Positions 1-28,305 of a DNA stretch of 64,000 nucleotides are shown here, one piece after another. The notes under the pieces are model-generated. The model did not search any database. It was given only the letters and a program-made list of their open reading frames with translations, and was not told where the DNA came from. Within the stretch, counting starts at the first letter, position 1. Each line of letters begins with the position of its first letter. This stretch comes from Candidatus Binatus sp. (GTDB lineage: Bacteria; Desulfobacterota; Binatia; Binatales; Binataceae). The translations under genes and the position numbers were made by a program. The DNA lies in NCBI RefSeq assembly GCF_030646925.1, contig NZ_JAUSKL010000124.1, positions 48,298 through 112,297 of the forward strand, given 5' to 3'.

Positions 1-221
1 TTCATCAGATTCTCTGCGTGACGCATCTGCCGCAGATTGCCGCGTTCGCCGATCGGCACTTCGTGGTCGAAAAAGAAGAGCGCCGCGGCTCGACCAAAAG
101 CCGCGTGACGATGCTGGCCGAACCTGAGCGCACCGGCGAAATCGCGCGGATGCTCGGTGGCGAGGCCTCCGACAAGTTTCGCCGCGCCGCCAAGGAACTG
201 CTCGACCTCGCCCGCACCTGA
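1..221 (+). CDS. recN: DNA repair protein RecN, C-terminal end (partial, continues upstream of window)
   Basis: C-terminal motif ...EIARMLGGE...AAKELL typical of RecN; ORF runs off 5' window edge. Confidence 0.55.
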   Translation, partial: HQILCVTHLPQIAAFADRHFVVEKEERRGSTKSRVTMLAEPERTGEIARMLGGEASDKFRRAAKELLDLART

Positions 222-333
222 GGCGAGCGCTAGACCGTCGGTCTCAGGCTTATGCCGTCTTTAGAATCGCCACGATCTGAGGTCGGTTGACAGCCCGGCG
301 CGCATCCGATTAGCTGAAAAATCCGCATTCGGT

Positions 334-409
334 GGGGCTGTAGCTCAGTTGGGAGAGCGCCTGAATGGCATTCAGGAGGTCGACGGTTCGATCCCGTTCA
401 GCTCCACCA
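334..409 (+). tRNA. tRNA-Ala (anticodon GGC)
   Basis: Cloverleaf read directly: acceptor GGGGCTG/CAGCTCC, D-arm GCTC..GAGC, anticodon loop ATGGCAT, T-loop TTCGATC, encoded CCA. Confidence 0.9.
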
Positions 410-711
410 ATCAAATCAAGGCTTTTTCGGTTTCGGACAGAATTGGACAGGCCTTGTCTGAAAACTGTCCGAATTTGTCAAGAAAGATGGAAGTATCGCA
501 GCTTTGCGGCCATACTCTGGGCCATGGTCGGACGCCCTACGGAAAGCATGTACCGCGAACGATGGTTATCTTCGATACATGAAACGTGTGCGTTCATTCG
601 CTATTGTAGAGGCCTCACGACTCGGATAAGACCAATCCGTTCGAGATGTTTGACCCTGTGGCGCGCTTGGTTTCGGTTGGATAGAGTCTGCGTGCGATTT
701 CAAGTGAACTC

Positions 712-1389
712 ATGATGTCAGATCCAAATCGTCCAGATTACTTCTTCTCGGTTGCGTTGGTCGGGGCCATGAACCCTGCGATTCATCACTACGCATGGTA
801 TCTGCACGAGAACATTCTGAAGAAAGAGGAAGCTGACATCGCCGCGCAGAGCGGAGCAGGGGTCTGTACCGCCCAATTATCGCAACTTCAATTTGGTGCG
901 ATTCTGATCTTCTGCGATCCCATCCGATGGCAGATCTCGACGTCCGAGATTCAGGCTGTGGGTCGCATCGTGAAGATTGCGGACGATACATTCTCGGTGC
1001 TCAGACACACGCCGGTGTCGGCGTTTGGCTTTAACTTCAATCACCATCGATCTACGAGATTGCCGAAGGTCAACAACACCTTAGCAAGGATGGTGCGTAG
1101 TCTGCCCTTGGGGCTCATCTCCGAGGACAGAGAAGAGTCTGCCGGAAAGCTGAATTATCAGCACTCGGTTGGCGGAGGGCGGGTGATCACAGTTCAAATA
1201 GAACCGTCAGTGAGGGGCCCCGACCAAGTCTACGTGGCAGTAAATGTCGAGTATCGCATGACGGCCGCGGCGGGGGAATTCAAGGCTTTCGAACTCAAAC
1301 TAGAAGAGCGCTTCCCTGGAGATCGGAAATTTGCGGAACAGCAACTTGAGTTCATAGTGAAGGCTCTAAATAGCCTAGAGGCAAATTGA
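712..1389 (+). CDS. hypothetical protein (first gene of 3-gene operon next to tRNA-Ala)
   Basis: 225-aa ORF, lower GC than flanks, stop TGA abuts next ATG (1390); no domain recognised. Confidence 0.5.
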   Translation: MMSDPNRPDYFFSVALVGAMNPAIHHYAWYLHENILKKEEADIAAQSGAGVCTAQLSQLQFGAILIFCDPIRWQISTSEIQAVGRIVKIADDTFSVLRHTPVSAFGFNFNHHRSTRLPKVNNTLARMVRSLPLGLISEDREESAGKLNYQHSVGGGRVITVQIEPSVRGPDQVYVAVNVEYRMTAAAGEFKAFELKLEERFPGDRKFAEQQLEFIVKALNSLEAN

Positions 1390-2217
1390 ATGGCGACGCC
1401 TTGCTCTCTGCGAGAACCAACCGACCGGCAGGGCATCCTTCCGCCCCTCGTGCTCTCCTCAACGGCAACTCGAAGCGCGAATTCTGCCGGGCAAGTTGGA
1501 ACGTCTGAGCAATTCCAGGCTGACGCGACGGGAGAGCCCTTAAGCGAATACGCCCGCAAAAAAAGCGTACCGTTGATGGGTCGAGCGTCTGCGGCGCGGG
1601 AAGTCATAAGAGCGATCGAGGTGAGCATTAAGAGTATTTCGGCTGGGCATTCCGGAGAATTGGGTGCTATTGGCCAGACGCTGGGTCGGCCTGTGACTTT
1701 GATTGGGCGTCCCGAGTTAGCGGAGTGGTACGAAAGGCTGGGCCGTTGGGTCGGACCTTTCGGCACCCGGACTGCTCAGGCTGAGCTTGTTCGCACATGG
1801 CTTGAGACCGGCGAAGAAGGTGCTGCCTGGCTGGTCGGTCAACTTCTTTGCGAGCAGCACGCTGATGCAATTTCGGGCTCATCAAGAGTGCTGCTTCAGA
1901 TGCGAGGCGCAGCTGCACCGCATGTAGTTGCAGCACTCGCGATGAGCGCCCGTTCGGAAGCAGTGGTTCCAGCGGTGACGTTCCTGCGCATTGTAAGAGA
2001 TCTGGATGCCGAGTCGGTAGGGCCGTGGTTGCCACAAATTTCGGAGATCTTGCACCGTCTGGTGGATCACTTCGATAAAGATGTGCGGCTGGCTGCCTTT
2101 CACACTTGCATAGATCTCCTGCCCGTCGAACAGGCTAAGCGAGTCCTGGCGCACAGGAGGGCAAAGGAGGCCGATCCCGAGCTAGCGGAGCTTCTTGAAT
2201 CCTTCCTGCGTCAGTAA
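1390..2217 (+). CDS. hypothetical protein (second gene of operon)
   Basis: 275-aa ORF immediately following previous stop; helical/repeat-like composition; no recognised family. Confidence 0.5.
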   Translation: MATPCSLREPTDRQGILPPLVLSSTATRSANSAGQVGTSEQFQADATGEPLSEYARKKSVPLMGRASAAREVIRAIEVSIKSISAGHSGELGAIGQTLGRPVTLIGRPELAEWYERLGRWVGPFGTRTAQAELVRTWLETGEEGAAWLVGQLLCEQHADAISGSSRVLLQMRGAAAPHVVAALAMSARSEAVVPAVTFLRIVRDLDAESVGPWLPQISEILHRLVDHFDKDVRLAAFHTCIDLLPVEQAKRVLAHRRAKEADPELAELLESFLRQ

Positions 2218-2232
2218 GGTTCATGACCTTGG

Positions 2233-2736
2233 ATGTGGATGCGGGAGGCACAGACGCGCAACTCTTGGGATAACCGCGATCCCGCGAATCCGGCTCATCG
2301 AGAACAGGCCGAAAAAGATCTGTTACGAACTGGCGATAAGAAGGTCTCGTTCTTTCGAGTTTCCTCGTGCGACGATATCGAGCGCGTCGCGTATCTCTTC
2401 GCATTGTGCATCAAAGGAGGTCAAGACCGATTCGACTACATGCTGCTAGACGAGAGTCTTCACAGTGCGTTCCAATTCGTTCCAAAACAAGATGCTGAGC
2501 TACATCCGTATTTACGGCCTCGCCACGTAGAGCTGAACTTGGAGTACCGCAAGACTCTTGATGCATTCCTGGACCTAGCCCTTGGCAGTAACGCCACGCG
2601 CCGGTTTTATGAGCGTGAGGTCGTTTGCGCCTTCGAGGCTATGAGCGGATTGGAACGGAGGGAAATCCTGGACTTCCAAAAGCAGCCTGAAAGGTGGAGA
2701 AAGAGCCTGAGCCGTATTGCGCCAGCACCTTCCTGA
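2233..2736 (+). CDS. hypothetical protein (third gene of operon)
   Basis: 167-aa ORF 16 nt after previous stop, same strand, lower GC. Confidence 0.45.
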   Translation: MWMREAQTRNSWDNRDPANPAHREQAEKDLLRTGDKKVSFFRVSSCDDIERVAYLFALCIKGGQDRFDYMLLDESLHSAFQFVPKQDAELHPYLRPRHVELNLEYRKTLDAFLDLALGSNATRRFYEREVVCAFEAMSGLERREILDFQKQPERWRKSLSRIAPAPS

Positions 2737-2922
2737 ATCGCGTTAAAGCACTTTAGCTAGTTACACGCGCTCCCTGGGACGATAGCTGGACGCCCCCGCA
2801 GTACGGATGTAACCCACGTGGGCGGCTGAGTCCACGCTTATAGCTCGCTTAATACACAAACGTTTTTCTCGCGAAAGGGCGCGCGCAAGCTTGTGATTCG
2901 AGCGGGTAATGCCTAATTTGCG

Positions 2923-3333
2923 ATGAGCCGGTCGTTGAGCAATCCGATTTGGGGATGGCTGAGCCTCACGATCGCCGCGGTCTATTCCGTGATTTGGCCG
3001 GGATGGCGCGACGCGCATCCGGCGCCGCATCCGTTTGCGATCTGTTTCGTGCTGCGATGGTTTCACGCGATCACATGGATTTTGCTCGCAGCTTCATTCT
3101 TCATCCGATCGTCTATTGCGCCGTCGCGAACCACGCTCGCCAACGCGATCGCGCCCGCCGCGATGCTCTGTTACGTCGCGTTCATCGCCACCTTCGCATA
3201 TTTCCGCACGACCCAGGTTGGTCGAGAGCAACCTCCTCGATTTCGGACGAGACGCTCATTGTGCCGAAGCCGGGGACAAGCCAATCCCTGCGGGGTGTCT
3301 GAATGCGCAATCCTGGCAGCTCGACGCCGCTGA
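2923..3333 (+). CDS. small hydrophobic membrane protein, copy 1 (3' end diverged, reads through into Arg-rich tail)
   Basis: ORF with ~3 predicted TM segments (IWPGWRDAHP..FHAITWILLAASFFI..); body nearly identical to copy at 6369-6602; lacks the native stop seen in copy 2. Confidence 0.4.
   Translation: MSRSLSNPIWGWLSLTIAAVYSVIWPGWRDAHPAPHPFAICFVLRWFHAITWILLAASFFIRSSIAPSRTTLANAIAPAAMLCYVAFIATFAYFRTTQVGREQPPRFRTRRSLCRSRGQANPCGVSECAILAARRR
2941..3216. repeat. direct repeat copy 1 (~276 bp, ~90% identical to 6321-6596)
   Basis: Nucleotide alignment by eye: aatccgatttggggatggctgag...cgcacgaccca vs aatccgctctggggacggctgag...cgcacgaccca. Confidence 0.85.
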
Positions 3334-5651
3334 CGACGCGGTCGCGCGGCCTGACTAGCGAAGAAGCTCATCGGCGTCTTCTCGAGTCTGGCCCCAATGC
3401 CGTGACCGAGAAGAAACCACATCTAATTGTGGCGCTCATCGGTAAGTTCTGGGCTCCGGTTCCGTGGATGCTCGAAGTCACCGTCGTGCTCGAGCTTGCG
3501 CTTGGCAAGGTTCTTGAGGCGGCTGTCATTGCGGTGCTGCTGGTCTTCAATGCCTCACTGAGCCTGTTCCAGGAAACGCGCGCGCGCGGCGCGCTGGAGC
3601 TGCTGCAACAGCGGCTTGCCGTGCAGGCTAGGGTTCTGCGTGACGGCGTATGGGGTCTGATTCCAGCAGAGCAGATGGTCCCGGGTGATTTCGTTCACTT
3701 GCAAATGGGCGACCTTGTGCCAGCCGACGTCGGCATCCGCGACGGAGAGGTGTTGCTCGATCAATCGGCACTTACCGGTGAGTCGGTGCCGGTAGAAGCG
3801 GACCAGGGCAAGACTGCTTACGCCGGCTCGTTGGTTAAGCGTGGCGAGGCCAGCGGCGAGGTCACGGCGACTGGCCAGCGAACCTTTTTTGGAAGGACCG
3901 CCGAACTGGTTCGCTCAGCCAGGACGGTCAGCCACCTGCAAAGCATCATCTTCTCGATCGTGAAGTACTTGGTGGCGATGGACACGGCGCTGGCGGTCGC
4001 GGTCTTCTTGTACGCCGCGCTCGTCGGTATGCCTCTCGCCGATACGCTTCCATTCGTACTGATCCTGCTGGTGGCTTCGGTTCCGGTCGCGCTACCGGCC
4101 ACGTTCACTTTGGCAACTGCGCTCGGCGCGGTGGAATTGGCCAAGCGCGGTGTTCTCGTGACGCGTCTGTCGGCGATCGAGGAAGCGGCGGCGATGGACA
4201 TGTTGTGCAGCGATAAAACCGGAACGATCACCCAAAATCAGCTATCGCTGGTGGCGTTGCATTCATACGCGCCGTTCAGCGAACACGACCTGTTGCGGTT
4301 CGCCGCATATGCCAGCGACGAAGCGGGCCAGGACCCGATCGATCTCGCCGTTCTCGCTCGCGCCAAAGCTGAAGGCACGCTCTCGGCGCCGACTCATCGG
4401 CTCAAGTTCATTCCGTTTGAGCCAGCAAGCAAGCTTGCCGAAGCCATCGTTGGCCAGGACGGAAAAGAATTGCGCGCCCTAAAGGGTGCGCCTCAAGCGG
4501 TTGCCGCGCGGGTCGGACACACTACCGACATAGATGCCGACGTTGAGCGACTTTCAGCGGGAGGTTACCGCGTGCTCGCAGTTGCGGGTGGCGCCGACGG
4601 CAGCTTGCGCTTGATCGGACTCCTGGCGCTTCAGGATCCGCCGCGCGGGGATTCCAGGTCGTTGGTGGCAAGCCTGAACAAGTTGGGTGTTCGCGTCGTG
4701 ATGGTAACCGGAGACGGGCTCGCGACAGCTCGTGCAGTAGCTGCGCAGGTCGGGATCTCGGGCCGTGCCTGTTCGTCGCAGGATTTGCGCGAGAACATCG
4801 ATAAGGCGCTCGATTGCGCAGTCTTCGCCGGTGTCTTTCCCGAAGACAAGTTTCAGCTCGTGCGCGCCCTGCAGCAGGCGGGACATGTTGTCGGCATGAC
4901 TGGAGACGGAGTCAACGACGCCCCGGCGCTCAAGCAGGCTGAAGTTGGGATCGCGGTCGCCACCGCCACCGACGTGGCGAAAGCCTCGGCCAGCTTGGTG
5001 CTCACCAATCCCGGTCTCACTGACACCCTGGCCGCGGTCGAAAGCAGCCGGCGCATCTATCAGCGCATGCTGACCTACACGCTCAACAAGATCATCAAGA
5101 CCGTCGAGATTGGGCTCTTCCTCAGCGTCGGCGTGATTGTTACGCGCACCTTCATCATTACGCCGCTACTGATCGTAATGCTGCTGTTCACGAATGACTT
5201 CGTAACCATGTCGATTGCGACCGATCACGTATCCGCGTCCCCGATGCCGGATCGTTGGCACATCCGCCGTCTGATGCTGGCTGGAATGAGTCTCGGCAGT
5301 CTCATCCTGCTGCTGTCGTTTGGCTTGTTTTTCTGGGGGCGGGACCTTCTTCACCTGTCGCTTCTTCAACTGCAGACACTGGTCTTTGTCACACTCGTGT
5401 TCACAGGTCAGGGGATGGTCTATCTGGTGCGCGAGCGCCACCACTTCTGGAATTCTGCTCCAAGCCGATGGATGATTCTCAGCTCGATTATAGACGTGGG
5501 AGTGGTGTGTCTGATGTCGATGCGGGGCATTTTGATGGCGCCTCTGCCGGGTGCGGTGATCGCATCGGTGATTCTCGCGTGCGCGCTGTACCTGATCGCT
5601 CTGGACTTCCTGAAGGTCCCAATTTTGGCGCGCCTGATGTACACGTCGTGA
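3303..5651 (+). CDS. P-type ATPase, plasma-membrane H+-ATPase-like (P3A subfamily)
   Basis: DKTGTIT phosphorylation motif, TGES actuator motif, TGDGVNDAPALK hinge, 8-10 TM; N-terminus GLTSEEAHRRLLESGPN typical of P3A pumps. Confidence 0.9.
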   Translation: MRNPGSSTPLTTRSRGLTSEEAHRRLLESGPNAVTEKKPHLIVALIGKFWAPVPWMLEVTVVLELALGKVLEAAVIAVLLVFNASLSLFQETRARGALELLQQRLAVQARVLRDGVWGLIPAEQMVPGDFVHLQMGDLVPADVGIRDGEVLLDQSALTGESVPVEADQGKTAYAGSLVKRGEASGEVTATGQRTFFGRTAELVRSARTVSHLQSIIFSIVKYLVAMDTALAVAVFLYAALVGMPLADTLPFVLILLVASVPVALPATFTLATALGAVELAKRGVLVTRLSAIEEAAAMDMLCSDKTGTITQNQLSLVALHSYAPFSEHDLLRFAAYASDEAGQDPIDLAVLARAKAEGTLSAPTHRLKFIPFEPASKLAEAIVGQDGKELRALKGAPQAVAARVGHTTDIDADVERLSAGGYRVLAVAGGADGSLRLIGLLALQDPPRGDSRSLVASLNKLGVRVVMVTGDGLATARAVAAQVGISGRACSSQDLRENIDKALDCAVFAGVFPEDKFQLVRALQQAGHVVGMTGDGVNDAPALKQAEVGIAVATATDVAKASASLVLTNPGLTDTLAAVESSRRIYQRMLTYTLNKIIKTVEIGLFLSVGVIVTRTFIITPLLIVMLLFTNDFVTMSIATDHVSASPMPDRWHIRRLMLAGMSLGSLILLLSFGLFFWGRDLLHLSLLQLQTLVFVTLVFTGQGMVYLVRERHHFWNSAPSRWMILSSIIDVGVVCLMSMRGILMAPLPGAVIASVILACALYLIALDFLKVPILARLMYTS

Positions 5652-5717
5652 GGTTTGTCAGAAGCGCAAGTGCTTCCGGCCAGAGTCCCTATCACTCAAA
5701 ATAGCCAGATGGAACTA

Positions 5718-6266
5718 ATGATGAACAAGGTGCTGTTGGTTCTCGTCCTGATAGCAATTGCTCCTATCTCTTCAGCCTGGTCCGCAGGTCCCGACTTCAT
5801 CGTCTGCAAAAGCACCTATGCCTTGTGCACTACGGCGGAGTGCTCCCCGATAGCTGACAAGCCGGGATTCGTGTCATGTAACTGCAATGTTACGACCGGC
5901 TACTCTGCCGGACTGCGAGCCTGCGAAGAGAAAAACGCCAGCGAGGGCCGGTCGCTCAAATCGCGCTACCATCCAATCAATAGCTACGCGCGTTGCTCTA
6001 ACGATCGCCCCTGGGGATGGTGCCTGGACAGCCCCTGCGTGGTGGATAACAGCGACCCTTCAAAGGCCGCCTGTGCGTGTTCGGTGGTTAAGAATCAAGG
6101 AGATTACGTGATCGTCAACGATACCGGCTCCTACAATGAGTCCTCATGCACTACCGGACTCTATTCATCAGCGACCGTCGTGCAGCTAGATCAGGTCACC
6201 GATTTTCTGAAGACTCACGACACCCCGCTGCATCCAGTTCCTATGAAGATTTACACGGGCAAGTAG
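5718..6266 (+). CDS. secreted cysteine-rich protein of unknown function
   Basis: Start 4 nt after ATPase stop region; N-terminal signal peptide MMNKVLLVLVLIAIAPISSAWS; ~16 Cys; no family recognised. Confidence 0.6.
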   Translation: MMNKVLLVLVLIAIAPISSAWSAGPDFIVCKSTYALCTTAECSPIADKPGFVSCNCNVTTGYSAGLRACEEKNASEGRSLKSRYHPINSYARCSNDRPWGWCLDSPCVVDNSDPSKAACACSVVKNQGDYVIVNDTGSYNESSCTTGLYSSATVVQLDQVTDFLKTHDTPLHPVPMKIYTGK

Positions 6267-6320
6267 ATGCTCGCATGCTCGGGCAGGCTTTCGATGCCGA
6301 CGTGAACTGGTCCTTGGACC

Positions 6321-6596
6321 AATCCGCTCTGGGGACGGCTGAGTCACGCGATCGCTGTCATCTATTCCGTGATTTGGCCGGGATGGCGCGATGCGCATCC
6401 GTCGCCGCATCCGTTCGCGATCTATTTCGTGCTGCGATGGTTTCACGCGATCACCTGGATCGTGCTCGCAGCTTCGTTCTTCATCCGCTCGTCGATTGCG
6501 CCGTCGCGAATCACGCTCGCCAACGCGATCGCGCTCGCCGCGATGCTCTCTTACGTCGCGTTCATCGCCACCTTCGCGTACATCCGCACGACCCAT
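6321..6596. repeat. direct repeat copy 2 (partner of 2941-3216)
   Basis: see copy 1. Confidence 0.85.
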
Positions 6597-6602
6597 TCGT
6601 AA
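6369..6602 (+). CDS. small hydrophobic membrane protein, copy 2 (intact C-terminus ...IRTTHS-stop; start GTG/TTG uncertain)
   Basis: Paralogue of 2923-3333; upstream in-frame stop at ~6303 limits N-terminus. Confidence 0.45.
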   Translation: MIWPGWRDAHPSPHPFAIYFVLRWFHAITWIVLAASFFIRSSIAPSRITLANAIALAAMLSYVAFIATFAYIRTTHS

Positions 6603-6762
6603 CCGCCAACATTGACGGAGAGGCCAATTTGTCCGCATTCACGCTCGACAGGGTGCGATTCGGTTTCATCTATGACCCGTTGTGAAACATTAATGCAACA
6701 TATAAAGTATCTGAATGCGAGCTCAACATTCACCACTTAAGCCCCGAGTCGCAAGCCGACCA

Positions 6763-7101
6763 ATGGAGAGCGCAGTAGCACGGATTCTAGACGACCTCGA
6801 GCAGCGCGGGGGACTCAAGGGCTCCGATGTCGCGAACATCGTCAATGCGTCGCGGCCGACCGTGTCGCGATGGAAGAGCGGCAAAGCCTCGCCGCCGCTC
6901 GCAACTCAGACCATCATCGCCGACCTGCGCTATGTCGTCGATCGACTGTCTGACTTCTATACGCCATCCGAGACGCGACTATGGCTTCATGCGAAACATC
7001 AACTGCTGAACAACGAACGTGCGATCGATCTGATCATTGCGGACCGCACGCAGGAAGTTCTCGCCGTTATCGAACGCCTCGATGCCGGTGCTTACCTATG
7101 A
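6763..7101 (+). CDS. Xre-family / DUF2384 antitoxin of RES-Xre toxin-antitoxin pair
   Basis: HTH-like N-terminus plus C-terminal region typical of Xre/MbcA/ParS antitoxins; directly upstream of RES-domain gene. Confidence 0.7.
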   Translation: MESAVARILDDLEQRGGLKGSDVANIVNASRPTVSRWKSGKASPPLATQTIIADLRYVVDRLSDFYTPSETRLWLHAKHQLLNNERAIDLIIADRTQEVLAVIERLDAGAYL

Positions 7102-7121
7102 CCATCCAGGCTTGACCTGCC

Positions 7122-7667
7122 ATGCCGGGAGCACGGAAGCCGCGCGATCCCGCACTGCTCGACGCACTCGATGCCCTCGATAGAGTTCATTATGCCGGCG
7201 AAGCTTGGCGGGTTGTGCGCGACGGCCGGGATCCTCTGCAGGGAAATGCTTCCGGCGGACGCTGGGATCCCACGTTGTTTGACGTACTCTACACCTCCCT
7301 GGATCCGGATGGAGCCGTTGCAGAAGTTCACTTTCACCTGTCACGTCAGCCGGTCTTTCCGTCGAGGATCAGCTACCGACTGCATCGCATCAAAGTCAGG
7401 ACCGCGAAGACTCTCAGCCTTCCGGATTTAGACGCGATGGTTCCGCTTGGCGTCGATCCGGCCCGATACCGCGCGATCCTCTACGAGCCCACTCAGGCAA
7501 TCGGCGACGCCGCTTACTTCCTCGGTTTCGACAGTATCATCGCCCCGAATGCTCGCTGGTCATGCGACAACTTGATCGTATTCACCGATCAGCTCGCGCC
7601 CGCCGAGCTGGAAGTCATCGAGTCGACGGAAGTCAATTGGACCAAATGGCGGAAGAAGCTGAACTGA
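7122..7667 (+). CDS. RES-domain toxin (MbcT/ParT-like NAD-targeting toxin family)
   Basis: Conserved R (GGRWDP), E (AVAEVHFHL) and S (IIAPNARWS) positions of the RES domain; 181 aa. Confidence 0.8.
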   Translation: MPGARKPRDPALLDALDALDRVHYAGEAWRVVRDGRDPLQGNASGGRWDPTLFDVLYTSLDPDGAVAEVHFHLSRQPVFPSRISYRLHRIKVRTAKTLSLPDLDAMVPLGVDPARYRAILYEPTQAIGDAAYFLGFDSIIAPNARWSCDNLIVFTDQLAPAELEVIESTEVNWTKWRKKLN

Positions 7668-7775
7668 TCGTATTCGCCGACGTGTGATTTTGCGCGGCGA
7701 TCGACGCTTTGACTTTTGCGCTGCGATGACGCATGGCTTGTCGGGTATGCTCCATCAGCAGCGGAGGTAAGAACG

Positions 7776-8144
7776 ATGATCGACCACGTCGGTTTTAAGG
7801 TTTCTGACTTCCAGAAGAGCAAGAAGTTCTATGAAGCCGCGCTGAAGTGCCTCGGTTACGGCGTCGTCTTCGGCGACGACGCGCAAAAGTTCGCCGGCTT
7901 CGGCGGCAAGGACGGTCCGGATTTCTGGATCACCCAGGGAACGGCCGGGGCGCCGGCGCATGTCGCGCTGCGAGCCTCCGATCGCGCGACCGTCGGACGA
8001 TTTCACGCCGACGCCCTCGCCGCCGGCGGGCGCGACAACGGCAAGCCGGGCCCGCGTCCCGAATACACGCCGACCTATTACGGCGCGTTCGTGCTCGATC
8101 CCGACGGCAACAACGTCGAGGTGGTCTGCCACGCGAGCGCGTAA
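7776..8144 (+). CDS. VOC family protein (glyoxalase/bleomycin-resistance/dioxygenase fold)
   Basis: MIDHVGFKVSDFQKSKKFYEAAL... typical VOC N-terminus; GGAGG RBS upstream. Confidence 0.8.
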   Translation: MIDHVGFKVSDFQKSKKFYEAALKCLGYGVVFGDDAQKFAGFGGKDGPDFWITQGTAGAPAHVALRASDRATVGRFHADALAAGGRDNGKPGPRPEYTPTYYGAFVLDPDGNNVEVVCHASA

Positions 8145-8198
8145 CGCGAACCGGCGAAACCCGAATTTGATCGACCGACTGCGCCGCGTGTTCCCTGC

Positions 8199-9122
8199 AT
8201 GAAAATACTGGTGATGGGCGCCGGCGCGGTCGGCTCGTACTTCGGCGCGCGCCTGCAAGCCGCGGGCGAAGACGTGGTGCTATGCGCGCGGGGCCAGCAT
8301 CTCGAGGCGATTCGCGAGCGAGGCCTCGACATCGCGAGTCCTCGCGGCGATCTTAAAATTCCCGTCACCGCGACCGCCAAGCCCGCGGAGTGCGCGCCGT
8401 ACGATCTGATTATTTTCAGCGTGAAGGGTTATGACACTGACGCAGCGGCTGAATTGATCCAGGGATGCATCAAGCCGGGCGGCGCGATTCTCACGATCCA
8501 GAACGGCGTCGAAAATGAAGCGCGCCTCGCCGCGATTTTCGGCGCCGACGCCGTGATGGGTGGTAACGCGCGCGTCGGCGTCGAGATGGTTGCGCCCGGC
8601 AAAATCGTTCACTTCAGCACGGGCCATATCGATTTCGGCGAACTCGACGGCCGCGAGAGCGATCGCGCGCTTAAAATCGCCGACGCGTTTCGGCGCGCCG
8701 GCATCCTCGGCCAGCTATCTGCCGATCTCAAGACGCTGCGCTGGGACAAGTTGATTTGGAACGGCTCGCTGAATACAATCGCGACGCTGACGCGGCGGCG
8801 GGTCTGCGAACTGCTCGACGATCCTGAAAGTATGCGGCTGCTGCGCACGCTGATGACGGAAATCGCCGCCGTCGGACGCGCCGAGGGCGCAAAGCTCGGC
8901 GATGATCGCGTCGAGGCTTACATCGCGCATTCGCAGAAAAATCTGCGCGCGCTCAAAACCTCGACCCAGCAGGACCTCGAGCACGGCAAGCCGCTCGAAT
9001 ACGACGAGCTGAGCGGCGCCGTAGTGCGAGCGGCGCGCCGGCATCGAATCGATGTGCCGGCCAACGAGACTATTTACGCCCTGCTGCGATTGCTCGACGG
9101 CGCGTCGCGCTCGATTTCCTAG
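8199..9122 (+). CDS. panE: 2-dehydropantoate 2-reductase (ketopantoate reductase)
   Basis: MKILVMGAGAVGSYFGARL Rossmann N-terminus and ApbA/PanE C-terminal domain. Confidence 0.85.
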   Translation: MKILVMGAGAVGSYFGARLQAAGEDVVLCARGQHLEAIRERGLDIASPRGDLKIPVTATAKPAECAPYDLIIFSVKGYDTDAAAELIQGCIKPGGAILTIQNGVENEARLAAIFGADAVMGGNARVGVEMVAPGKIVHFSTGHIDFGELDGRESDRALKIADAFRRAGILGQLSADLKTLRWDKLIWNGSLNTIATLTRRRVCELLDDPESMRLLRTLMTEIAAVGRAEGAKLGDDRVEAYIAHSQKNLRALKTSTQQDLEHGKPLEYDELSGAVVRAARRHRIDVPANETIYALLRLLDGASRSIS

Positions 9123-9128
9123 CCGACT

Positions 9129-9842
9129 CTAACGCTTCTCGAACTGCTTGGCGCCGAACAGGATGTCCCAGCTTTTCTTGTCCTGCTGCGGCTGCTGCGC
9201 CGCCGCGCGCATCTTCTCGACTTCCGCGCCCATCACGGCAAAGCCGCGCTGCGTCGCCGGTCGCGCGCGAAGTTCGTCGTACCATTTCTTCAGATTGGGA
9301 AAGTCCTCGAGTTCCTGCCCCTGCATGCTGTGCGGCACCAGCCACGGATAGATCGCGATATCCGCGATCGAGTAGTCGCCCGCAATATATTTCGCCTCGC
9401 CGAGTCGTTTATCGATCACTCCATAGATGCGTTTGGCTTCGTTAGTGTAACGATTGATCGCGTATTCGATTTTTTCTGGCGCGTAACGGCGAAAATGATG
9501 CGCCTGGCCGAGCATCGGACCGACGCTCGCCATCTGGAACATCAGCCACTGCAACACTTCATACTTGCCGCGCGGGTCAGTCGGCATCAGTTGGCCGGTT
9601 TTTTCCGCGAGATAGATCAGGATCGCGCCGGATTCGAAAATCGAAATCGGCTTGCCATCGGGGCCATCGGAATCGGTGAGCGCGGGCATCCGGTTGTTCG
9701 GACTGATTTTCAAAAATTCGGGCTTGAACTGATCACCGGCGCCGATATTGACCGGAATCACGTTGTACTTGAGCCCGACTTCCTCGAGCATCCAGGTCAC
9801 TTTGTAGCCGTTCGGCGTGGGCCAGAAATATACGTCGATCAT
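9129..9842 (-). CDS. glutathione S-transferase (Nu-class, YghU/YfcG-like)
   Basis: MIDVYFWPTPNGYKVTWMLEEVGL..., ESGAILIYLAEK motif. Confidence 0.85.
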   Translation of the reverse strand: MIDVYFWPTPNGYKVTWMLEEVGLKYNVIPVNIGAGDQFKPEFLKISPNNRMPALTDSDGPDGKPISIFESGAILIYLAEKTGQLMPTDPRGKYEVLQWLMFQMASVGPMLGQAHHFRRYAPEKIEYAINRYTNEAKRIYGVIDKRLGEAKYIAGDYSIADIAIYPWLVPHSMQGQELEDFPNLKKWYDELRARPATQRGFAVMGAEVEKMRAAAQQPQQDKKSWDILFGAKQFEKR

Positions 9843-9968
9843 GCGCTGCTCCTTGCTGGACTCGACAGTTTTCGCGCACGGCCTGTGCGGGATGCGCCGT
9901 TGCAGATTGCAACTTTGATCACTTGCGCACCCGACGCAAGGCAAACTCGATCGAGCGGCAAGGGCCCG

Positions 9969-11097
9969 TTAAGTCGGCATCGTATCGGCGTCACCTTTGC
10001 GCACGCCCATCAGGTACGCCTCGATAAAATCATCGATCGCGCCGTCCAGCACCGCATCCGTGTTGCCGATCTCGACGCCGGTGCGATGGTCCTTCACCAT
10101 CCGATACGGCTGCAGCACGTACGATCGAATCTGGCTGCCCCACGCGATGTCTTTCTTGTCCTTGCTGAACTTCTCGAGTTCTTCCTTTTTCTTGCGCTGC
10201 TCAAGCTCGAACAAACGTGCGCGCAAAATCTTCATCGCCATCGCGCGATTCTTATGCTGCGAGCGCTCGTTCTGGCACGTCACCACGATGCCGCTCGGGA
10301 GGTGCGTGAAGCGCACCGCCGAGTCAGTCTTGTTAACGTGTTGTCCACCCGCCCCCGACGCGCGAAACGTATCGATCCGCAAATCAGCCGGATTGATGAT
10401 GATTTCGATCGTGTCGTCCACCGCTGGAAAAACGAACACCGACGCAAACGACGTATGCCGCCGCGCGTTGGCGTCGAAGGGCGAGATTCGCACCAGCCGA
10501 TGAATCCCGGCCTCGGCCTTGAGATAGCCGTACGCGAAATCTCCTTCCACCGTCACAGTCGCACTCTTGATTCCCGCGCCGTCGCCGGGTTGCAGGTCCG
10601 CGATTTCGGTGCTGAAGCCGCGGCGCTCGGCCCATCGCAGGTAGAGCCGCAGCAGCATCTCGGCCCAATCCTGCGCCTCCATGCCGCCGGCGCCGGGATG
10701 GATCGATACGATCGCGCCGAGCCGATCGTGCTCGCCGCTCAGCATCAGGCGTAGTTCCTGACGCTCGAGCTCGATGCGCGACGCGTCGAGCGCCGACGCG
10801 GTTTCGCGCGCGGCTTCGGAGTCGTCGGCGCCCTCTTCCTCCGCCATCTGGAGAAACACCCGCGCCTCGTCGAGCTTGTCGCGCAGCATCTTGTAGCCCG
10901 TGAGCTGCGCGCGCAGTTGTTCCTGCTCTTTCAGCGACGCCTGCGCTTTTTCGCGGTCGTCCCAGAAATCCTGTTTGGCGGATTGTTCGACGAGCTGGGT
11001 CTGGCGGGTGGTCAGTGCGGGGACGTCAAAGACGCCTCCCGAGCTTATCGGCGCGATCATCGAACTCGGCAAGCTGCTGCTTCATGTCGCTGAGCAT
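9969..11097 (-). CDS. prfB: peptide chain release factor 2 with programmed +1 frameshift (join 11097..11029 and 11027..9969)
   Basis: Frame-0 ORF from ATG at 11097 (MLSDMKQQLAEFDDRADKLGRRL) ends at CTT TGA C preceded by GGGAGG; +1 frame continues DVPALTT...; GGQ motif (SGAGGQHVNKT) and SPF motif downstream. Confidence 0.9.
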
Positions 11098-11198
11098 TGG
11101 AAATTTCACCTCACCTCGCGCCGGGATTAATCGGCGCCTGAGGATTCATTGTGACACAAGCGCGCGCTCCGATTAATGGGGCCTGGCTCCGCTCCTTT

Positions 11199-12383
11199 TT
11201 ACTTCGGGATTGGCTTTTGCAAAATGACGAGCACGTTTTTCCCTCGTTGCGGCACGCGTTGTCTTCCAACAAGCCCCTGCAACCGCACCTTTCCGGCGCT
11301 TATCCAATCACGAATCCAGTCTTTGAGGTCACTTTCCCAGACCATCGGTACCGATGTTGTTATTTGCCAAAGAATGTCGTGCGGAACGCGGCCTTTCTCA
11401 GCCAGCTCAGCTTCGACTTTTGCCAGTCCGATCTCGATAAATCGTTGCCGCAACGAATCGTAATAATCCGAATCGTTCATAACACCGGCGGAAAACAGTT
11501 CCCTATTTGCACTGCGATCGATTCGCCTGCGCTGACGCGCCGCAGCTCGAGCTGATTCCATTGCCTGCATGGCCATCTTTTCCGATTCCTTGAAGACTGC
11601 CATACCCTCCGGGTGGCGCGTTGCGCAGATCAAATGGAAATGGGTTCGATTGATCTCGGGATGCAATACAATAGCGCTACTAACAAAATCGAAACCGCCA
11701 ACGCGCTTTACGTTCTCGGAATAGAGTCTGACCGCCTCCTCATCGCGATCCACGCCGGTCAAACCTTCCAACCCCTTCCGGTAGGTTTCTGAACCAAACA
11801 GCGCTGTGAAGCTGTCCTGTGTATCTTTTTGAGGAGAATCCAAAAAACGGCGTATGTGACCGGTCATGAAGTTAATCAAAACTTCAACTGGATGAAGCTT
11901 CAAGATCGGTTCGATCGTGTTCATTGCGAAGCCCGTCCAGCCTGTCGGATCGATAAATACAAACGGAAAGGATCCTGACCCGCCATCCCTCACGAAGCTG
12001 AGAATCTCCCCGACGGCTCCCTCGAGTTCTCCGTTCAGCGTTTTGACGTCGATATCCGAAATGCTTGCGGTAAATTTCTGGAGTTGTTCGTACGCTCCTG
12101 GATCTCTTTCGAGGAAGAAGCAACGCAATCGTAACACGTGTCCGCGCTTCAGTTGCGTTGCTCGAGCCTTTCTCAATTCTTCCAAAGCGATTGAGAAGGA
12201 GCTATCGCTTAGCTTGCTCGATTGCACATTCCAAGGGCCGGCGAAACAGTCTATGTAGGTTATGCAAGCCCACTTAGACCCAACCTTGTGAGCAAAGCGC
12301 TCAAGGTACTTTCGAAGAATGAGATGCTTTACAAGGGTTTGTTCCCGACCAATGTATAGATCTTCCTCGCTCAAATTCCCCAC
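11199..12383 (-). CDS. three-Cys-motif partner protein TcmP-like (partner of Gp37/Gp68-family protein)
   Basis: 394-aa protein with YIDCFAGPW and FVFIDPTGW motifs; adjacency to DUF5131 protein matches the TcmP context; lower GC. Confidence 0.55.
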   Translation of the reverse strand: MGNLSEEDLYIGREQTLVKHLILRKYLERFAHKVGSKWACITYIDCFAGPWNVQSSKLSDSSFSIALEELRKARATQLKRGHVLRLRCFFLERDPGAYEQLQKFTASISDIDVKTLNGELEGAVGEILSFVRDGGSGSFPFVFIDPTGWTGFAMNTIEPILKLHPVEVLINFMTGHIRRFLDSPQKDTQDSFTALFGSETYRKGLEGLTGVDRDEEAVRLYSENVKRVGGFDFVSSAIVLHPEINRTHFHLICATRHPEGMAVFKESEKMAMQAMESARAAARQRRRIDRSANRELFSAGVMNDSDYYDSLRQRFIEIGLAKVEAELAEKGRVPHDILWQITTSVPMVWESDLKDWIRDWISAGKVRLQGLVGRQRVPQRGKNVLVILQKPIPK

Positions 12384-12429
12384 CTTTGAATCGCAATGGT
12401 TTTTATCGTTCTAGGTGACAGGAAGTTAT

Positions 12430-13182
12430 CTAATTTGGGTTCTTCCACTTGTGCGTCGTGGGAAACTCCCCATAAGTCTTTCCACGCAGCCGGCGTCCAG
12501 TCTCATGCTTTCGCACGCCGCCCCATTGCTTGAAAAAGAATGGAACACCGAACTGTCGACATTGACCTAAAAGAGATAGAACCCACTTCTCTTCCATAGG
12601 CCTTGCCTTCGGTCCGCTCTCGCCACCGACAATCACCCAGTCGATTCCGCTAAGGTCGAGCGTGCCGAGATCTTCCAGCAGAGGCTCTACCGAAAGAAAT
12701 CTGACGCAAGCAGGAGTCTCCAATAGAGCCTTAATCCGAGGCAAGCCGTATTTTCGATCTTCAACGCTCACTCCGAACCAAACATTTGGTAACTCTCCCA
12801 ACCAAGCGAGTGGCCCTGAAATGAGCTCCTTCATTCTCGTGTGGCGCTTCGTAAGAACTTGGTAGACATGCCAATTCGCCTCTTCCATGACGCGGCCGAC
12901 ATCCCCTATGTAGCTAATCGGCACGCCTTCTTGGAAGAGATCACTCATCGAGTTTACAAATATCATACGCGGAGTTAGCCACCTCAAAGGCTCGCGCAAC
13001 TTTTCTGGTACAAGTCGCAGATCAAAGCCCTGTTCGAAGGGATGTCCCCTCACCCCGCGGAACCGCTGGGCAAATCGCTCGGCGTAGCAGTTCTTGCATC
13101 CTGGACTTACTTTCACGCACCCTCTAATCGGATTCCAGGTAGCATCCGTCCATTCGATGGTACTCTTGACGCTCATTGTCAA
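12430..13182 (-). CDS. phage Gp37/Gp68-family protein (DUF5131) with three-Cys motif
   Basis: N-terminal TIEWTDATWNPIRGCVKVSPGCKNCYA (Cys-x6-Cys-x2-Cys) characteristic of the family; 250 aa. Confidence 0.65.
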   Translation of the reverse strand: MTMSVKSTIEWTDATWNPIRGCVKVSPGCKNCYAERFAQRFRGVRGHPFEQGFDLRLVPEKLREPLRWLTPRMIFVNSMSDLFQEGVPISYIGDVGRVMEEANWHVYQVLTKRHTRMKELISGPLAWLGELPNVWFGVSVEDRKYGLPRIKALLETPACVRFLSVEPLLEDLGTLDLSGIDWVIVGGESGPKARPMEEKWVLSLLGQCRQFGVPFFFKQWGGVRKHETGRRLRGKTYGEFPTTHKWKNPN

Positions 13183-13388
13183 ACCCTCGAGCGAAACTTA
13201 GGCGAAACTGGTCTGAAGTTCAACCGCCATTTCGCGAGCAGGCGGCTGCTGACGTTGATGCACCTGCACGCACATGACAATTTTCGCCGCAATAATGAGA
13301 GGTCACATTCCGTCGCGAGGCCCCGATTAATGGGGTGTCCGCCCGCCCGCCGGTGCGCCTGTATATCTGGGCGGCGCGAAATGCCGAG

Positions 13389-13420
13389 TGGCTCCCCGGG
13401 CCGGATTCGAACCAGCGACA
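13389..13420. repeat. 32-nt direct copy of the 3' end of tRNA-Asn (att-like island boundary)
   Basis: tggctccccgggccggattcgaaccagcgaca identical to 17399-17430. Confidence 0.8.
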
Positions 13421-21399: not shown

Positions 21400-21800
21400 G
21401 AGTTCAGGGGAATGAAACGCGAAGGGACCGAGGCGGATTCTCCTGTGGCACAGGCTTCAGCCTGTGGAGGTGTGATCGCCGAAGCCCGGCGTGCACGCGC
21501 GTTCGATCAAAATCAAAGGCGATCAACAGGAACGGAAGAGGATCCGGGATTCTTCGCTGCGCTCAGAATGACAAAATGTGATGACGCGACGAGTAGGCGG
21601 CATGCGGGATGATAGCAGGGGCGTCGCGGTGGCGCCGCAAGGCGGCGACATCGCGACAGCACCCTCACCGGCCTCTTTATCCTGGAGCGATTCGGCCCTT
21701 CGGCCCGAAGTCGGCTTCGCGTGCGTTCCCGCGACTTCGGCCTCCTCTCCCTCAACAAAGCGCGATTTTGTTGGTGTTGACACTCAGACCGGAAAGTGAT
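21400..21800. repeat. cluster of GC-rich palindromic intergenic repeat units (shared with 19151-19230 and 26338-26700)
   Basis: Segments ggatccgggattcttcgctgcgctcagaatgaca and cgattcggcccttcggcccgaagtcggcttcgcg recur elsewhere in window. Confidence 0.45.
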
Positions 21801-26146: not shown

Positions 26147-26221
26147 GGGTTTACCTCCACATACCGGTCGTTTAGCGCAATCTTGGGCGGAACGAAAGCC
26201 CCGCGTGAGAGGAAAGAAACG

Positions 26222-26333
26222 GAATTCGAAACCCCTCACGGGTTTCGAGCTTCCTGGGGCATCGCGAAGCCGACTTCGGGCCGCAGGGCCGAATCGCAAT
26301 AAGATTAAGATGCGCGCTACGCGCTGTTAATAG
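26222..26333 (+). repeat. structured intergenic repeat element family A, copy 1 (three hairpins)
   Basis: cgaaacccctcacgggtttcg hairpin, gccgacttcgggccgcagggccgaatcg, gcgcgctacgcgc hairpin; ~95% identical to copy 2. Confidence 0.6.
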
Positions 26334-26337
26334 TTGA

Positions 26338-26800
26338 ATGGGTAAACGCCGGAAGAGATCGAGGCTGAAGTCCTCCCGAGCGAAGCCGCCTCCTCTGTCA
26401 TTCCCGCGCGTGGCTGCCGCGCGAGGAATCCCGGCTCCTCGTTCCTCTTCTGTCGCCGCGCAGTCCCTTCCGTCATCTCCTCTTCGTCATTCAGAGCGCC
26501 GCGAAGAATCCCGGATCCTTTGTTCGCGCCGACGGCACCCTCACCCGCCTCTCTATCGTAGAGCGATTCGGCCCTTCGGCCCGAAGTCGGCTTCGCGGCT
26601 GACGCGCTTCGGCGCGCCTCTCCCGCAACAAAGCGGGCGAGGCAAACCTCCGGGATTCTTCGGCGTCGCGGCCTTAGCCTCTGAATGACAACAGTGGTGC
26701 AGTTCGCTCGGTACTAGAGATTCGATGCCGTCATCGATCAGTTCAGCGAAGAGATTCGGGATTCCTCGCGCGGCAGCTTACCTACTTCGAGTCGGCCCTC
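26338..26800. repeat. dense array of GC-rich palindromic repeat units (GTCATTC..GCG..GAAGAATCCC type)
   Basis: Inverted pairs e.g. tggctgccgcgcgaggaatccc (26400s) vs gggattcctcgcgcggcagc (26760s); units shared with 21400-21800 and 19151-19230. Confidence 0.5.
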
Positions 26801-28148: not shown

Positions 28149-28195
28149 TGTTTAATCGAAGCGTCGTGGCAGAGGAAGGAGCGAGGAAAAGAGAA

Positions 28196-28305
28196 GAGTT
28201 CGAAACCCCTCACGGGTTTCGAGCTTCCTGGGGCGACGCGAAGCCGACTTCGGGCCGCAGGGCCGAATCGCGATAAGATAAGATGCGCGCTACGCGCTGT
28301 TAGTA
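28196..28305 (+). repeat. structured intergenic repeat element family A, copy 2
   Basis: see copy 1. Confidence 0.6.

Follow-up and report, generated by a model that had tools for sequence, protein, structure and literature searches.

A metagenome-assembled genome of Candidatus Binatus (GenBank record) carries two similar copies of a small membrane-protein gene, which bracket a TIGR01647 P3A-type ATPase gene and a gene for a Cys-rich protein with a signal peptide. This raises the question whether the four genes represent a pump with its own small subunits or were brought together by rearrangement of the chromosome. Here, we address it for a window of 64 kb, in which all features described below lie on the forward strand. 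We consider it likely that the locus is an insertion-duplication mosaic, i.e., a local rearrangement of an ordinary kind within a variable region and not a new pump-plus-subunit system.

The direct repeat extends over 279 nt without gaps (2937-3215 and 6317-6595, at a spacing of 3380 bp), is 90% identical and represents the longest repeat detected by a repeat search anywhere in the window. This is in good agreement with the initial annotation, which had placed two approximately 90% identical copies around two genes at 2941-3216 and 6321-6596. The copies mismatch at 27 of the 279 positions and additionally differ by one indel. When one 1-nt indel is allowed, their similarity can be followed as far back as the respective start codons (ATG 2923, GTG 6302); it ends at 3215/6595, which is 8 nt (two codons and the stop) short of the native end of the gene. 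Comparison of the two copies by tblastn yields E=2.5e-47, and their resemblance is therefore not due to chance. Identity is distributed unevenly, with 76% over the first 66 nt versus 93% over the remainder (Fisher p=4e-4), and the longest exact run common to both copies comprises 31 nt. An Rfam scan of 1-12000 matched a tRNA only, so that the repeat does not correspond to any known RNA. Promoter and terminator scanning of 2200-7800 returned nothing exceeding shuffled sequences and is uninformative on operon structure.

With a metagenome-assembled genome as source, such a repeat could arise from two strain variants joined via the small gene or from a repeat duplicated by the assembler. Logan contigs, assembled with k=31, indeed break at 2992 (inside copy 1, within the shared 31-nt run) as well as at 5866 and 7119. 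Independent assembly support covers the left junction only, since the right junction (Cys-rich gene, copy 2, Xre gene) lies outside the Logan contigs, and look-ups of the exact proteins of copy 1, copy 2, the Cys-rich gene and the Xre antitoxin gave no further contigs. On the other hand, contig L171 of the independent Logan assembly is 100% identical to window positions 2992-5866 and thereby covers the 3' part of copy 1, the 3215/3216 junction, the whole ATPase gene and the first part of the Cys-rich gene. The 27 mismatches and the indel distinguish the copies, a shared run of 31 nt is too short to mislead assemblers at k 55-141, and the two copies are set apart by different flanks and different lesions. 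With the left junction exactly recovered in a second assembly and no shared run above 31 nt, we regard either form of assembly artefact as quite improbable.

The small gene encodes a membrane protein of approximately 99 aa with three helices, which belongs to an uncharacterised family. A family profile search retrieved 144 representatives (E<=1e-3) of about 95-105 aa, with the invariant residues P26, R45, W46, W52 and Y84 and the motifs WP, (L/I)RWxH, W and Y. The AF2 model likewise predicts three helices (pLDDT 87.4). Scans of Pfam, NCBIfam, PHROG and PADLOC assigned the protein to no family, and a fold search found generic three-helix bundles only, all at E>0.3. Judged by its substitution pattern, the small gene is a real coding gene, because dN/dS amounts to 0.25-0.36 in its reading frame versus 0.9-2.0 in the other two frames. 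Copy 1 exhibits the family length, the three helices and the motifs over residues 1-98, and copy 2 does so only once a frameshift is corrected; the copies score 107 and 101 bits, respectively.

Both copies deviate from the native form, each in its own way. Copy 1 (2923-3333, GenBank MDO8434944.1) starts as the native gene does and keeps codons 1-98 (2923-3215), and the final 8 nt of the native sequence are missing. It reads through a non-native tail (3216-3333) of 38 aa, 10 of which are Arg, and overlaps the ATPase start by 31 nt in the same orientation. Homology to the ATPase-upstream region of another locus, L088, begins at 3251, which identifies the tail as ATPase leader DNA. The long form of copy 1 was thus rejected as the native one: close homologues (intact P0002 and P0245) and the 144 family representatives stop soon after helix 3, at approximately 99 aa. 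Copy 2 (6302-6602, GTG start) retains the native 3' end and stop codon, and its C-terminus, IRTTHS followed by the stop, matches that of P0002. It carries a 1-nt insertion at about 6317, found neither in copy 1 nor in the loci L002 and L089, which shifts the frame after VNWSL (codon 5). Because of this frameshift, GenBank annotates copy 2 as just 77 aa from GTG 6369. The lost stop and Arg-rich tail of copy 1 and the native C-terminus of copy 2 had been read correctly before, and the insertion now accounts for the start of copy 2, which had appeared uncertain. The fused copy 1 and the frameshifted copy 2 are products of rearrangement.

The ATPase (3303-5651) is, as far as its sequence tells, a member of the P3A type and proton-pump-like. 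It scores 697.8 bits on TIGR01647 (cutoff 615.5; residues 16-738 of 782), has AHA2 (5ksd, 3.9e-124) and Pma1 as its best solved relatives, and carries the catalytic motifs DKTGT at 304, TGES at 158 and TGDGVNDAP at 533. In the phmmer alignment to 5ksd, Asn83 and Asp632 correspond to N106 and D684 of AHA2. In AHA2, D684 is the proton acceptor in TM6, opposed by N106, and R655 in TM5 controls the pKa of this Asp. At the R655 position the Binatus protein has Glu602 in place of Arg, with Lys596 and Lys599 close by. The position of the basic residue varies between fungi and plants (PMC10654040), and Glu602 is thus compatible with P3A membership. The likeness to AHA2 and Pma1 accordingly lies in the TIGR01647 score, the DKTGT and TGES motifs and the proton-site Asn and Asp, whereas the length of 782 aa, the absence of N- and C-terminal regulatory extensions and the Glu at the Arg655 position set the Binatus ATPase apart.

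Pumps of this type had been called rare in bacteria by the initial annotation, as they are in a 2023 review, according to which the function and the transported ion of prokaryotic P3A ATPases have not been determined (PMC10654040). The rarity is contradicted by more than 7,700 database proteins that are P3A-like at E<=1e-100, many of them labelled bacterial proton-efflux P-type ATPases. Hence, P3A-like pumps are abundant in bacterial metagenomes, far commoner than reviews say. The closest ATPases (82-91% identical) come from six loci, which represent three distinct contexts. Downstream of them lie Usp and/or OsmC; upstream lie either IS110, SSB and ArdC together, or IS21 remnants, or PAP2. DNA homology to these loci is confined to the ATPase coding sequence, from 3251/3335 to 5666/5679. 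P3A ATPases in Binataceae occupy mobile, mosaic contexts.

The second bracketed gene (5721-6266) encodes a putatively secreted protein of 181 aa with a signal peptide and 12 Cys residues that are invariant across 31 homologues, so that the earlier description of the pair as an H+-ATPase-like pump and a signal-peptide Cys-rich protein holds. The family is present in 152 GTDB species and is common to Legionella, Binataceae, Acidobacteriaceae and Methyloceanibacter. The AF2 model is mostly beta (pLDDT 85.5); the protein found no fold match in the PDB and no family in Pfam, NCBIfam, PHROG or PADLOC.

If the small protein served the pump, the two should occur together elsewhere, and it had been proposed that the small proteins are proteolipid-like subunits. 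More specifically, the three-helix proteins could be accessory or regulatory subunits of the P3A pump, with the overlap of copy 1 representing translational coupling. The analogues are yeast Pmp1/2, FXYD, sarcolipin/phospholamban and bacterial KdpF, MgtS and MgtR, which resemble the Binatus case in that a small hydrophobic protein is encoded beside an ATPase. P-type ATPases are known to have small membrane partners (PMC10654040). In the Binatus locus, copy 1 runs in the same direction as the ATPase gene and overlaps its start, and purifying selection was kept in both copies, with a dN/dS of 0.36 between them. Against this stands the genomic distribution: a P-type ATPase is near none of 80 loci of small-protein relatives, and a small-gene family member at none of the six closest ATPase loci. 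Many of the 80 metagenome loci are short contigs, where a missing ATPase tells less than it does in the 20-kb genome loci. Moreover, the overlap arises from the non-native tail of ATPase leader DNA, the related contig L001 holds a small-gene remnant at the same locus without an ATPase, and the fold search mentioned above yielded generic bundles only. The known regulators are single-helix proteins of about 30-70 aa, versus three helices and about 99 aa here. We therefore consider the subunit reading extremely improbable.

The Cys-rich gene shows the same lack of association. Among 80 loci of its relatives, none has a P-type ATPase within 10 kb and none has the small gene, and it is also missing beside the six closest ATPases. 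Adjacency to an ATPase is thus not conserved in 160 loci, and that in Binatus was made by rearrangement. The idea that the ATPase and Cys-rich genes form a unit, as the initial annotation had it, is not supported either, and their transfer as a two-gene cassette was rejected: they show separate, per-gene homology blocks to other genomes and co-occur nowhere else. In our judgement, small proteins, pump and Cys-rich protein are probably neighbours by an accident of rearrangement and constitute no functional system.

The order of events can be approached via the related 2.6-kb contig L001, the one syntenic relative on which the comparison rests. It comprises an upstream gene, tRNA-Ala, a 160-nt decayed small-gene remnant, glyoxalase and panE, and carries neither the ATPase nor the Cys-rich gene; 305 bp take the place of 7.3 kb in the window. 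The left anchor of this variable stretch is tRNA-Ala(GGC) at 334-409 (ARAGORN; Rfam tRNA 64.2 bits). Its region is 95% identical to L001, and homology ends at 420 and resumes only at 7763, where the glyoxalase side has 84% nucleotide identity to L001 1528-2599. The glyoxalase-family gene (7776-8144; PF00903; L170 gene calls) is the right anchor and part of the core genome. Missing from L001 are also a segment of lower GC (421-2922) with the hypothetical ORFs 712-1389, 1390-2217 and 2233-2736, all three without a match in Pfam, NCBIfam, PADLOC and PHROG scans, and a further insert (6715-7667) consisting of an Xre-type antitoxin gene (6715-7101; PF09722/NF049845) and a RES-domain toxin gene (7122-7667; PF08808). 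GC content is itself a mosaic: 54.7% in 421-2922, 60.7% in the ATPase gene, 54.9% in the Cys-rich gene and 64.1% in core genes. Since the syntenic relative has a single remnant and no ATPase, the duplicated arrangement is derived and lies within a 7.3-kb variable stretch. A locus with one small gene and no pump had been named as a check of the initial annotation; L001 is such a locus, with the gene decayed. The part of that annotation which proposed an insertion or recombination thus stands, while the subunit, the unit and the rarity do not. The L001 remnant is 80-82% identical to each copy, and the copies are 90% identical to one another; therefore, duplication took place after the split or the copies were homogenised later.

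From these observations we infer the following course. The tRNA-Ala-to-glyoxalase stretch is probably a hypervariable accessory region with the small membrane-protein gene as resident, and about 3.09 kb of accessory DNA, the ATPase, which elsewhere moves alone among mobile-element-rich contexts, and the unrelated Cys-rich gene, have ended up between two copies of it. This may have happened by Campbell-type single-crossover integration of DNA bearing an internal piece of the small gene, or by a tandem duplication in which foreign DNA was caught at the junction. On the left, the copy retains native upstream DNA and start and, cut 8 nt before the stop, reads into the ATPase leader; on the right, the copy retains the native stop and downstream DNA and has lost its native upstream region, and it would later have acquired the frameshift and a quicker 5' decay. 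A crossover between the repeats, if located beyond about 6317, would remove both inserted genes and leave a single intact small gene. The Binatus locus resembles junctions of both types in its direct repeats of one gene around foreign DNA, its 3'-truncated upstream copy, its downstream copy without native 5' flank, and the single gene that repeat recombination would restore. It differs from them in that the repeats are diverged by 10%, and unevenly so, that neither a vector nor an integrase nor a circular intermediate can be identified, and that the insert combines two unrelated genes into a mosaic of its own.

The uneven identity of the copies is not predicted by a single event with uniform divergence; it calls for 3' gene conversion or for quicker decay at the 5' end of copy 2, which is untranslated. 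This bears on a different order of events, in which tandem small-gene paralogues came first, the ATPase and Cys-rich genes were inserted later in one or two events, and the 3' 230 nt were converted. A mosaic of 76% (5') and 93% (3') identity is typical of gene conversion between paralogues, and two genes that differ in GC and are unlinked elsewhere are consistent with separate arrivals. However, the insertions must then have taken away precisely the final 8 nt of copy 1 together with the entire native upstream DNA of copy 2, a coincidence that one junction-forming event does not require, and the sole syntenic relative has one remnant, not two. We thus rate paralogues before insertion as the less likely order, with a modest chance of being correct, and prefer the insertion-duplication mosaic.

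A composite transposon or IS-bounded unit is not supported, as the repeats encode a three-helix membrane protein and not a transposase, and the repeat search reported no inverted repeats at the borders. Among the ORFs of 410-7700, Pfam, NCBIfam and PHROG revealed no integrase or transposase, which counts against the insertion reading. The stretch resembles tRNA-adjacent islands and islets in its position directly 3' of tRNA-Ala, its absence from the syntenic relative, its partly lower GC and its load of a toxin-antitoxin pair and accessory genes. Unlike these, it has no integrase, is small (7.3 kb) and looks like a patchwork of several events, and a search over 15 kb for att-like repeats of the tRNA region gave nothing of 11 nt or longer.

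A further reading, which we hold to be improbable, is that the repeats act as a recombination switch or, more remotely, that this lineage has turned the small protein into a partner of the P3A pump. In such a switch, the crossover beyond about 6317 would be mediated by RecA, the pump and Cys-rich genes would leave as a circle, and the small gene would again encode its intact 99 aa. Cells with and without the pump would then coexist in the population, and any site with the small gene could take up the circle again.

On the preferred insertion-duplication reading, the locus matters little beyond annotation: pump, Cys-rich protein and small proteins should not be annotated as one system. As by-products, bacterial P3A-like ATPases prove commoner in metagenomes than reviews state, and two uncharacterised, well-conserved families come to light, a three-helix small membrane protein and a 12-Cys secreted protein.

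The longest repeat of the entire 64 kb is a direct one, which pairs 2937-3215 with 6317-6595 over 279 nt at 90% identity and with a spacing of 3380 bp, as found by a repeat search. With one 1-nt indel, the similarity spans from the start codons of two small membrane-protein gene copies (copy 1, ATG 2923; copy 2, GTG 6302) to 3215/6595, and a tblastn comparison of the copies yields E=2.5e-47. Inside the repeat pair lie the ORFs of a P-type ATPase (3303-5651, 782 aa) and of a Cys-rich secreted protein (5721-6266, 181 aa), and the initial annotation was correct in its coordinates and description of this locus. GenBank already annotates the locus, in a Candidatus Binatus sp. MAG (contig of 124,738 bp), as hypothetical proteins and a P3A-type ATPase, with copy 1 as MDO8434944.1 (Q7S58_21300, 136 aa), the pump as MDO8434945.1 ("plasma-membrane proton-efflux P-type ATPase"), the Cys-rich protein as MDO8434946.1 and copy 2 as MDO8434947.1 (77 aa).

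The two copies differ at 27 of the 279 aligned positions, and their longest exact run in common is 31 nt. L171, a contig of the independent Logan assembly (run SRR13727527), matches 2992-5866 at 100% and reads from the 3' portion of copy 1 across the junction at 3215/3216 and the complete ATPase into the beginning of the Cys-rich gene. On the left it ends inside the single shared 31-nt run, as expected of a k=31 graph. A second Logan contig, L170, matches 7119-13416 at 99.9%. Independent assembly support is that of these two stretches; exact-protein look-ups for 5867-7118 returned no confirming contig, and the junction of the Cys-rich gene and copy 2 therein is given by the MAG assembly only.

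In the intact homologues P0002 (99 aa, contig L002) and P0245 (97 aa, contig L089), the C-terminus lies a few residues past helix 3. Copy 2 has the same ending (...IRTTHS and stop), which bears out its native C-terminus. Copy 1 departs from the native sequence at 3215/3216, 8 nt (two codons and the stop) short of the native end, and has indeed lost its native stop. Its tail of 38 residues (10 Arg) overlaps the ATPase ORF by 31 nt and is closed by the stop codon 3331-3333. From 3251 on, the tail DNA is homologous to the ATPase upstream region in another genome (L088), and thus the tail is a read-through into the pump leader, not small-protein sequence. The start of copy 2 had been called uncertain; a start problem is present, and it can be traced to an extra base at about 6317 that is absent from copy 1, L002 and L089. 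The start codon and the ancestral N-W-S codons are kept, but the extra base turns the frame from GTG 6302 into nonsense, and the only product predicted to be possible is one of 77 aa from GTG 6369, lacking helix 1. Identity between the copies is 76% in the first 66 nt and 93% in the other 227 nt (Fisher p=4e-4). This pattern fits either gene conversion in the 3' part or, in copy 2, an accelerated decay of the 5' end, which is no longer translated.

Among 5.8 billion proteins, the small protein has only four close relatives. Searched with a profile, 1.84 billion cluster representatives yielded 144 relatives at E<=1e-3, almost all of them 95-105 aa long and with invariant P26, R45, W46, W52 and Y84. 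No Pfam or NCBIfam model matches. The AlphaFold2 model shows three long helices (pLDDT 87.4), for which a fold search returned generic three-helix membrane bundles only (E>0.3). Among copy 1, copy 2 and the intact L002 homologue, dN/dS is 0.25-0.36 in the proposed frame versus 0.9-2.0 in the other two; the proposed frame is therefore coding and under purifying selection. The small gene is thus a genuine gene, and its family is uncharacterised.

A 2.6-kb contig of the related genome GCA_038217945.1 (L001) is syntenic at both flanks: its upstream gene aligns with 1-230 (87%), its tRNA-Ala region with 279-420 (95%), and its glyoxalase and ketopantoate-reductase genes with 7763-8849 (84%). The gap from tRNA-Ala to glyoxalase measures 305 bp in L001 versus 7.3 kb in the window, where it holds, in order, a segment of three ORFs, copy 1, the ATPase, the Cys-rich gene, copy 2 and an Xre/RES pair. 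GC content is 54.7% in the three-ORF segment, 54.9% in the Cys-rich gene and 64% in the adjoining core genes. Within the L001 gap lies a small-gene remnant of 160 nt, 5'-truncated and 3'-frameshifted, and hence the small gene was already present there in the common ancestor. The remnant is equally far from both copies (80-82% identity), while the copies share 90% identity (dS 0.21), so that the duplication, or the last homogenisation, is younger than the split of the genomes. Judged from this comparison, the arrangement in the window is the derived state.

The locus is built like an insertion-duplication. On the left, the small-gene copy retains its native 5' flank but is cut short at the 3' end; on the right, the copy retains its native 3' end and flank but lacks the native 5' flank; foreign DNA lies between them. 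This arrangement would result from a single crossover that integrates DNA with an internal piece of the small gene, and likewise from a tandem duplication whose junction captured DNA. Alternatively, the two copies may have pre-existed as a tandem pair that received the insertions later, although this requires extra coincidences. Insertion with duplication agrees in general form with the insertion or recombination proposed initially, given the copy anatomy and the derived state relative to L001. Neither integrase nor transposase domains were found in the 7.3-kb stretch, nor was a repeat of the tRNA 3' end of at least 11 nt found. A 54.7%-GC segment directly after tRNA-Ala contains, at 712-2736, three consecutive co-oriented ORFs (225, 275 and 167 aa) that have no match in Pfam, NCBIfam, PADLOC or PHROGs and are missing from L001. 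Likewise missing from L001 is the Xre-type antitoxin and RES-domain toxin pair at 6715-7667, between copy 2 and the core glyoxalase.

The ATPase passes the TIGR01647 equivalog (697.8, cutoff 615.5) and carries the motifs DKTGT, TGES and TGDGVNDAP. Among solved structures, AHA2 (E=3.9e-124) and fungal Pma1 are the best matches. Asn106 and Asp684 of AHA2 are conserved as Asn83 and Asp632. Arg655 of AHA2 is a TM5 residue thought to control proton release; unlike AHA2, the window ATPase has Glu602 at this position, with Lys596 and Lys599 one to two helical turns earlier. As in other prokaryotic P3A members, the eukaryotic terminal regulatory domains are lacking. The gene had been assumed to be rare in bacteria, which it is not, since more than 7,700 proteins came up at E<=1e-100 in a database search; those with an organism name come from Binataceae, Terriglobia/Terriglobales, Sulfotelmatobacter and Sulfuricella. 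The closest ATPases (six loci, L083-L088) are 82-91% identical, with Usp and/or OsmC genes downstream and either IS110 transposase, SSB and ArdC, or IS21 remnants, or a PAP2 gene upstream. These neighbours suggest that in this lineage the pump gene is passed around on mobile or stress-island DNA. AbiE also occurs at these loci, together with IS110, SSB, ArdC and IS21 fragments.

The Cys-rich family (at least 140 clusters) is well conserved: 12 Cys are invariant, and the mature domain measures about 155 aa. It occurs in 152 of the species-representative genomes scanned, including Binataceae, many Legionella, Methyloceanibacter, Acidobacteriaceae and Eremiobacterota. No model in Pfam, NCBIfam or PHROG matches, and the confident, mostly beta AF2 model (pLDDT 85.5) has no match among PDB folds. 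The commonest neighbour is a secreted DUF4440 protein, located downstream in 40 of 80 genome loci. A DUF6790 membrane protein is found nearby in 25 of the 80 genomes.

The 80 Cys-rich genome loci, covered up to 10 kb on each side, contain neither a P-type ATPase nor a member of the small-protein family. Homology of the window to other Cys-rich genes is confined to 5716-6265, and homology to the closest ATPase loci, at the nucleotide level, to the ATPase coding sequence (3251/3335 to 5666/5679). Separate homology blocks and missing co-occurrence indicate that the "two-gene unit" of pump and Cys-rich protein put forward in the initial annotation is itself a mosaic. It was also suggested there that the small proteins are proteolipid-like regulatory subunits of the pump. 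This idea finds no comparative support, as tblastn detected a P-type ATPase in none of 80 metagenome loci with small-protein relatives, where genes for electron-transfer flavoprotein and acyl-CoA dehydrogenase are the recurrent neighbours. On these comparative grounds, functional linkage of the three genes is not supported.

Elsewhere in the window, short direct and inverted repeats of 50-97 nt (21654-21721, 26209-26314, 26530-26597 and 28183-28279) share a GC-rich palindromic core (CGCGAAGCCGACTTCGGGCCG...GGCCGAATCGC) and look like REP- or MITE-type intergenic repeats. On the minus strand, a gene at 11199-12383 within a low-GC patch (~50%) encodes a 394-aa protein that matches PDC-M30A, a candidate defence family of PADLOC (E=2.3e-13); by the L170 gene calls, its downstream neighbour on the same strand encodes a DUF5131 protein.

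Altogether, a variable region beside a tRNA gene in this MAG has undergone an ordinary, lineage-specific rearrangement. If the repeats recombined homologously 3' of the frameshift, the pump and Cys-rich genes would be lost and a single intact small gene would be restored.
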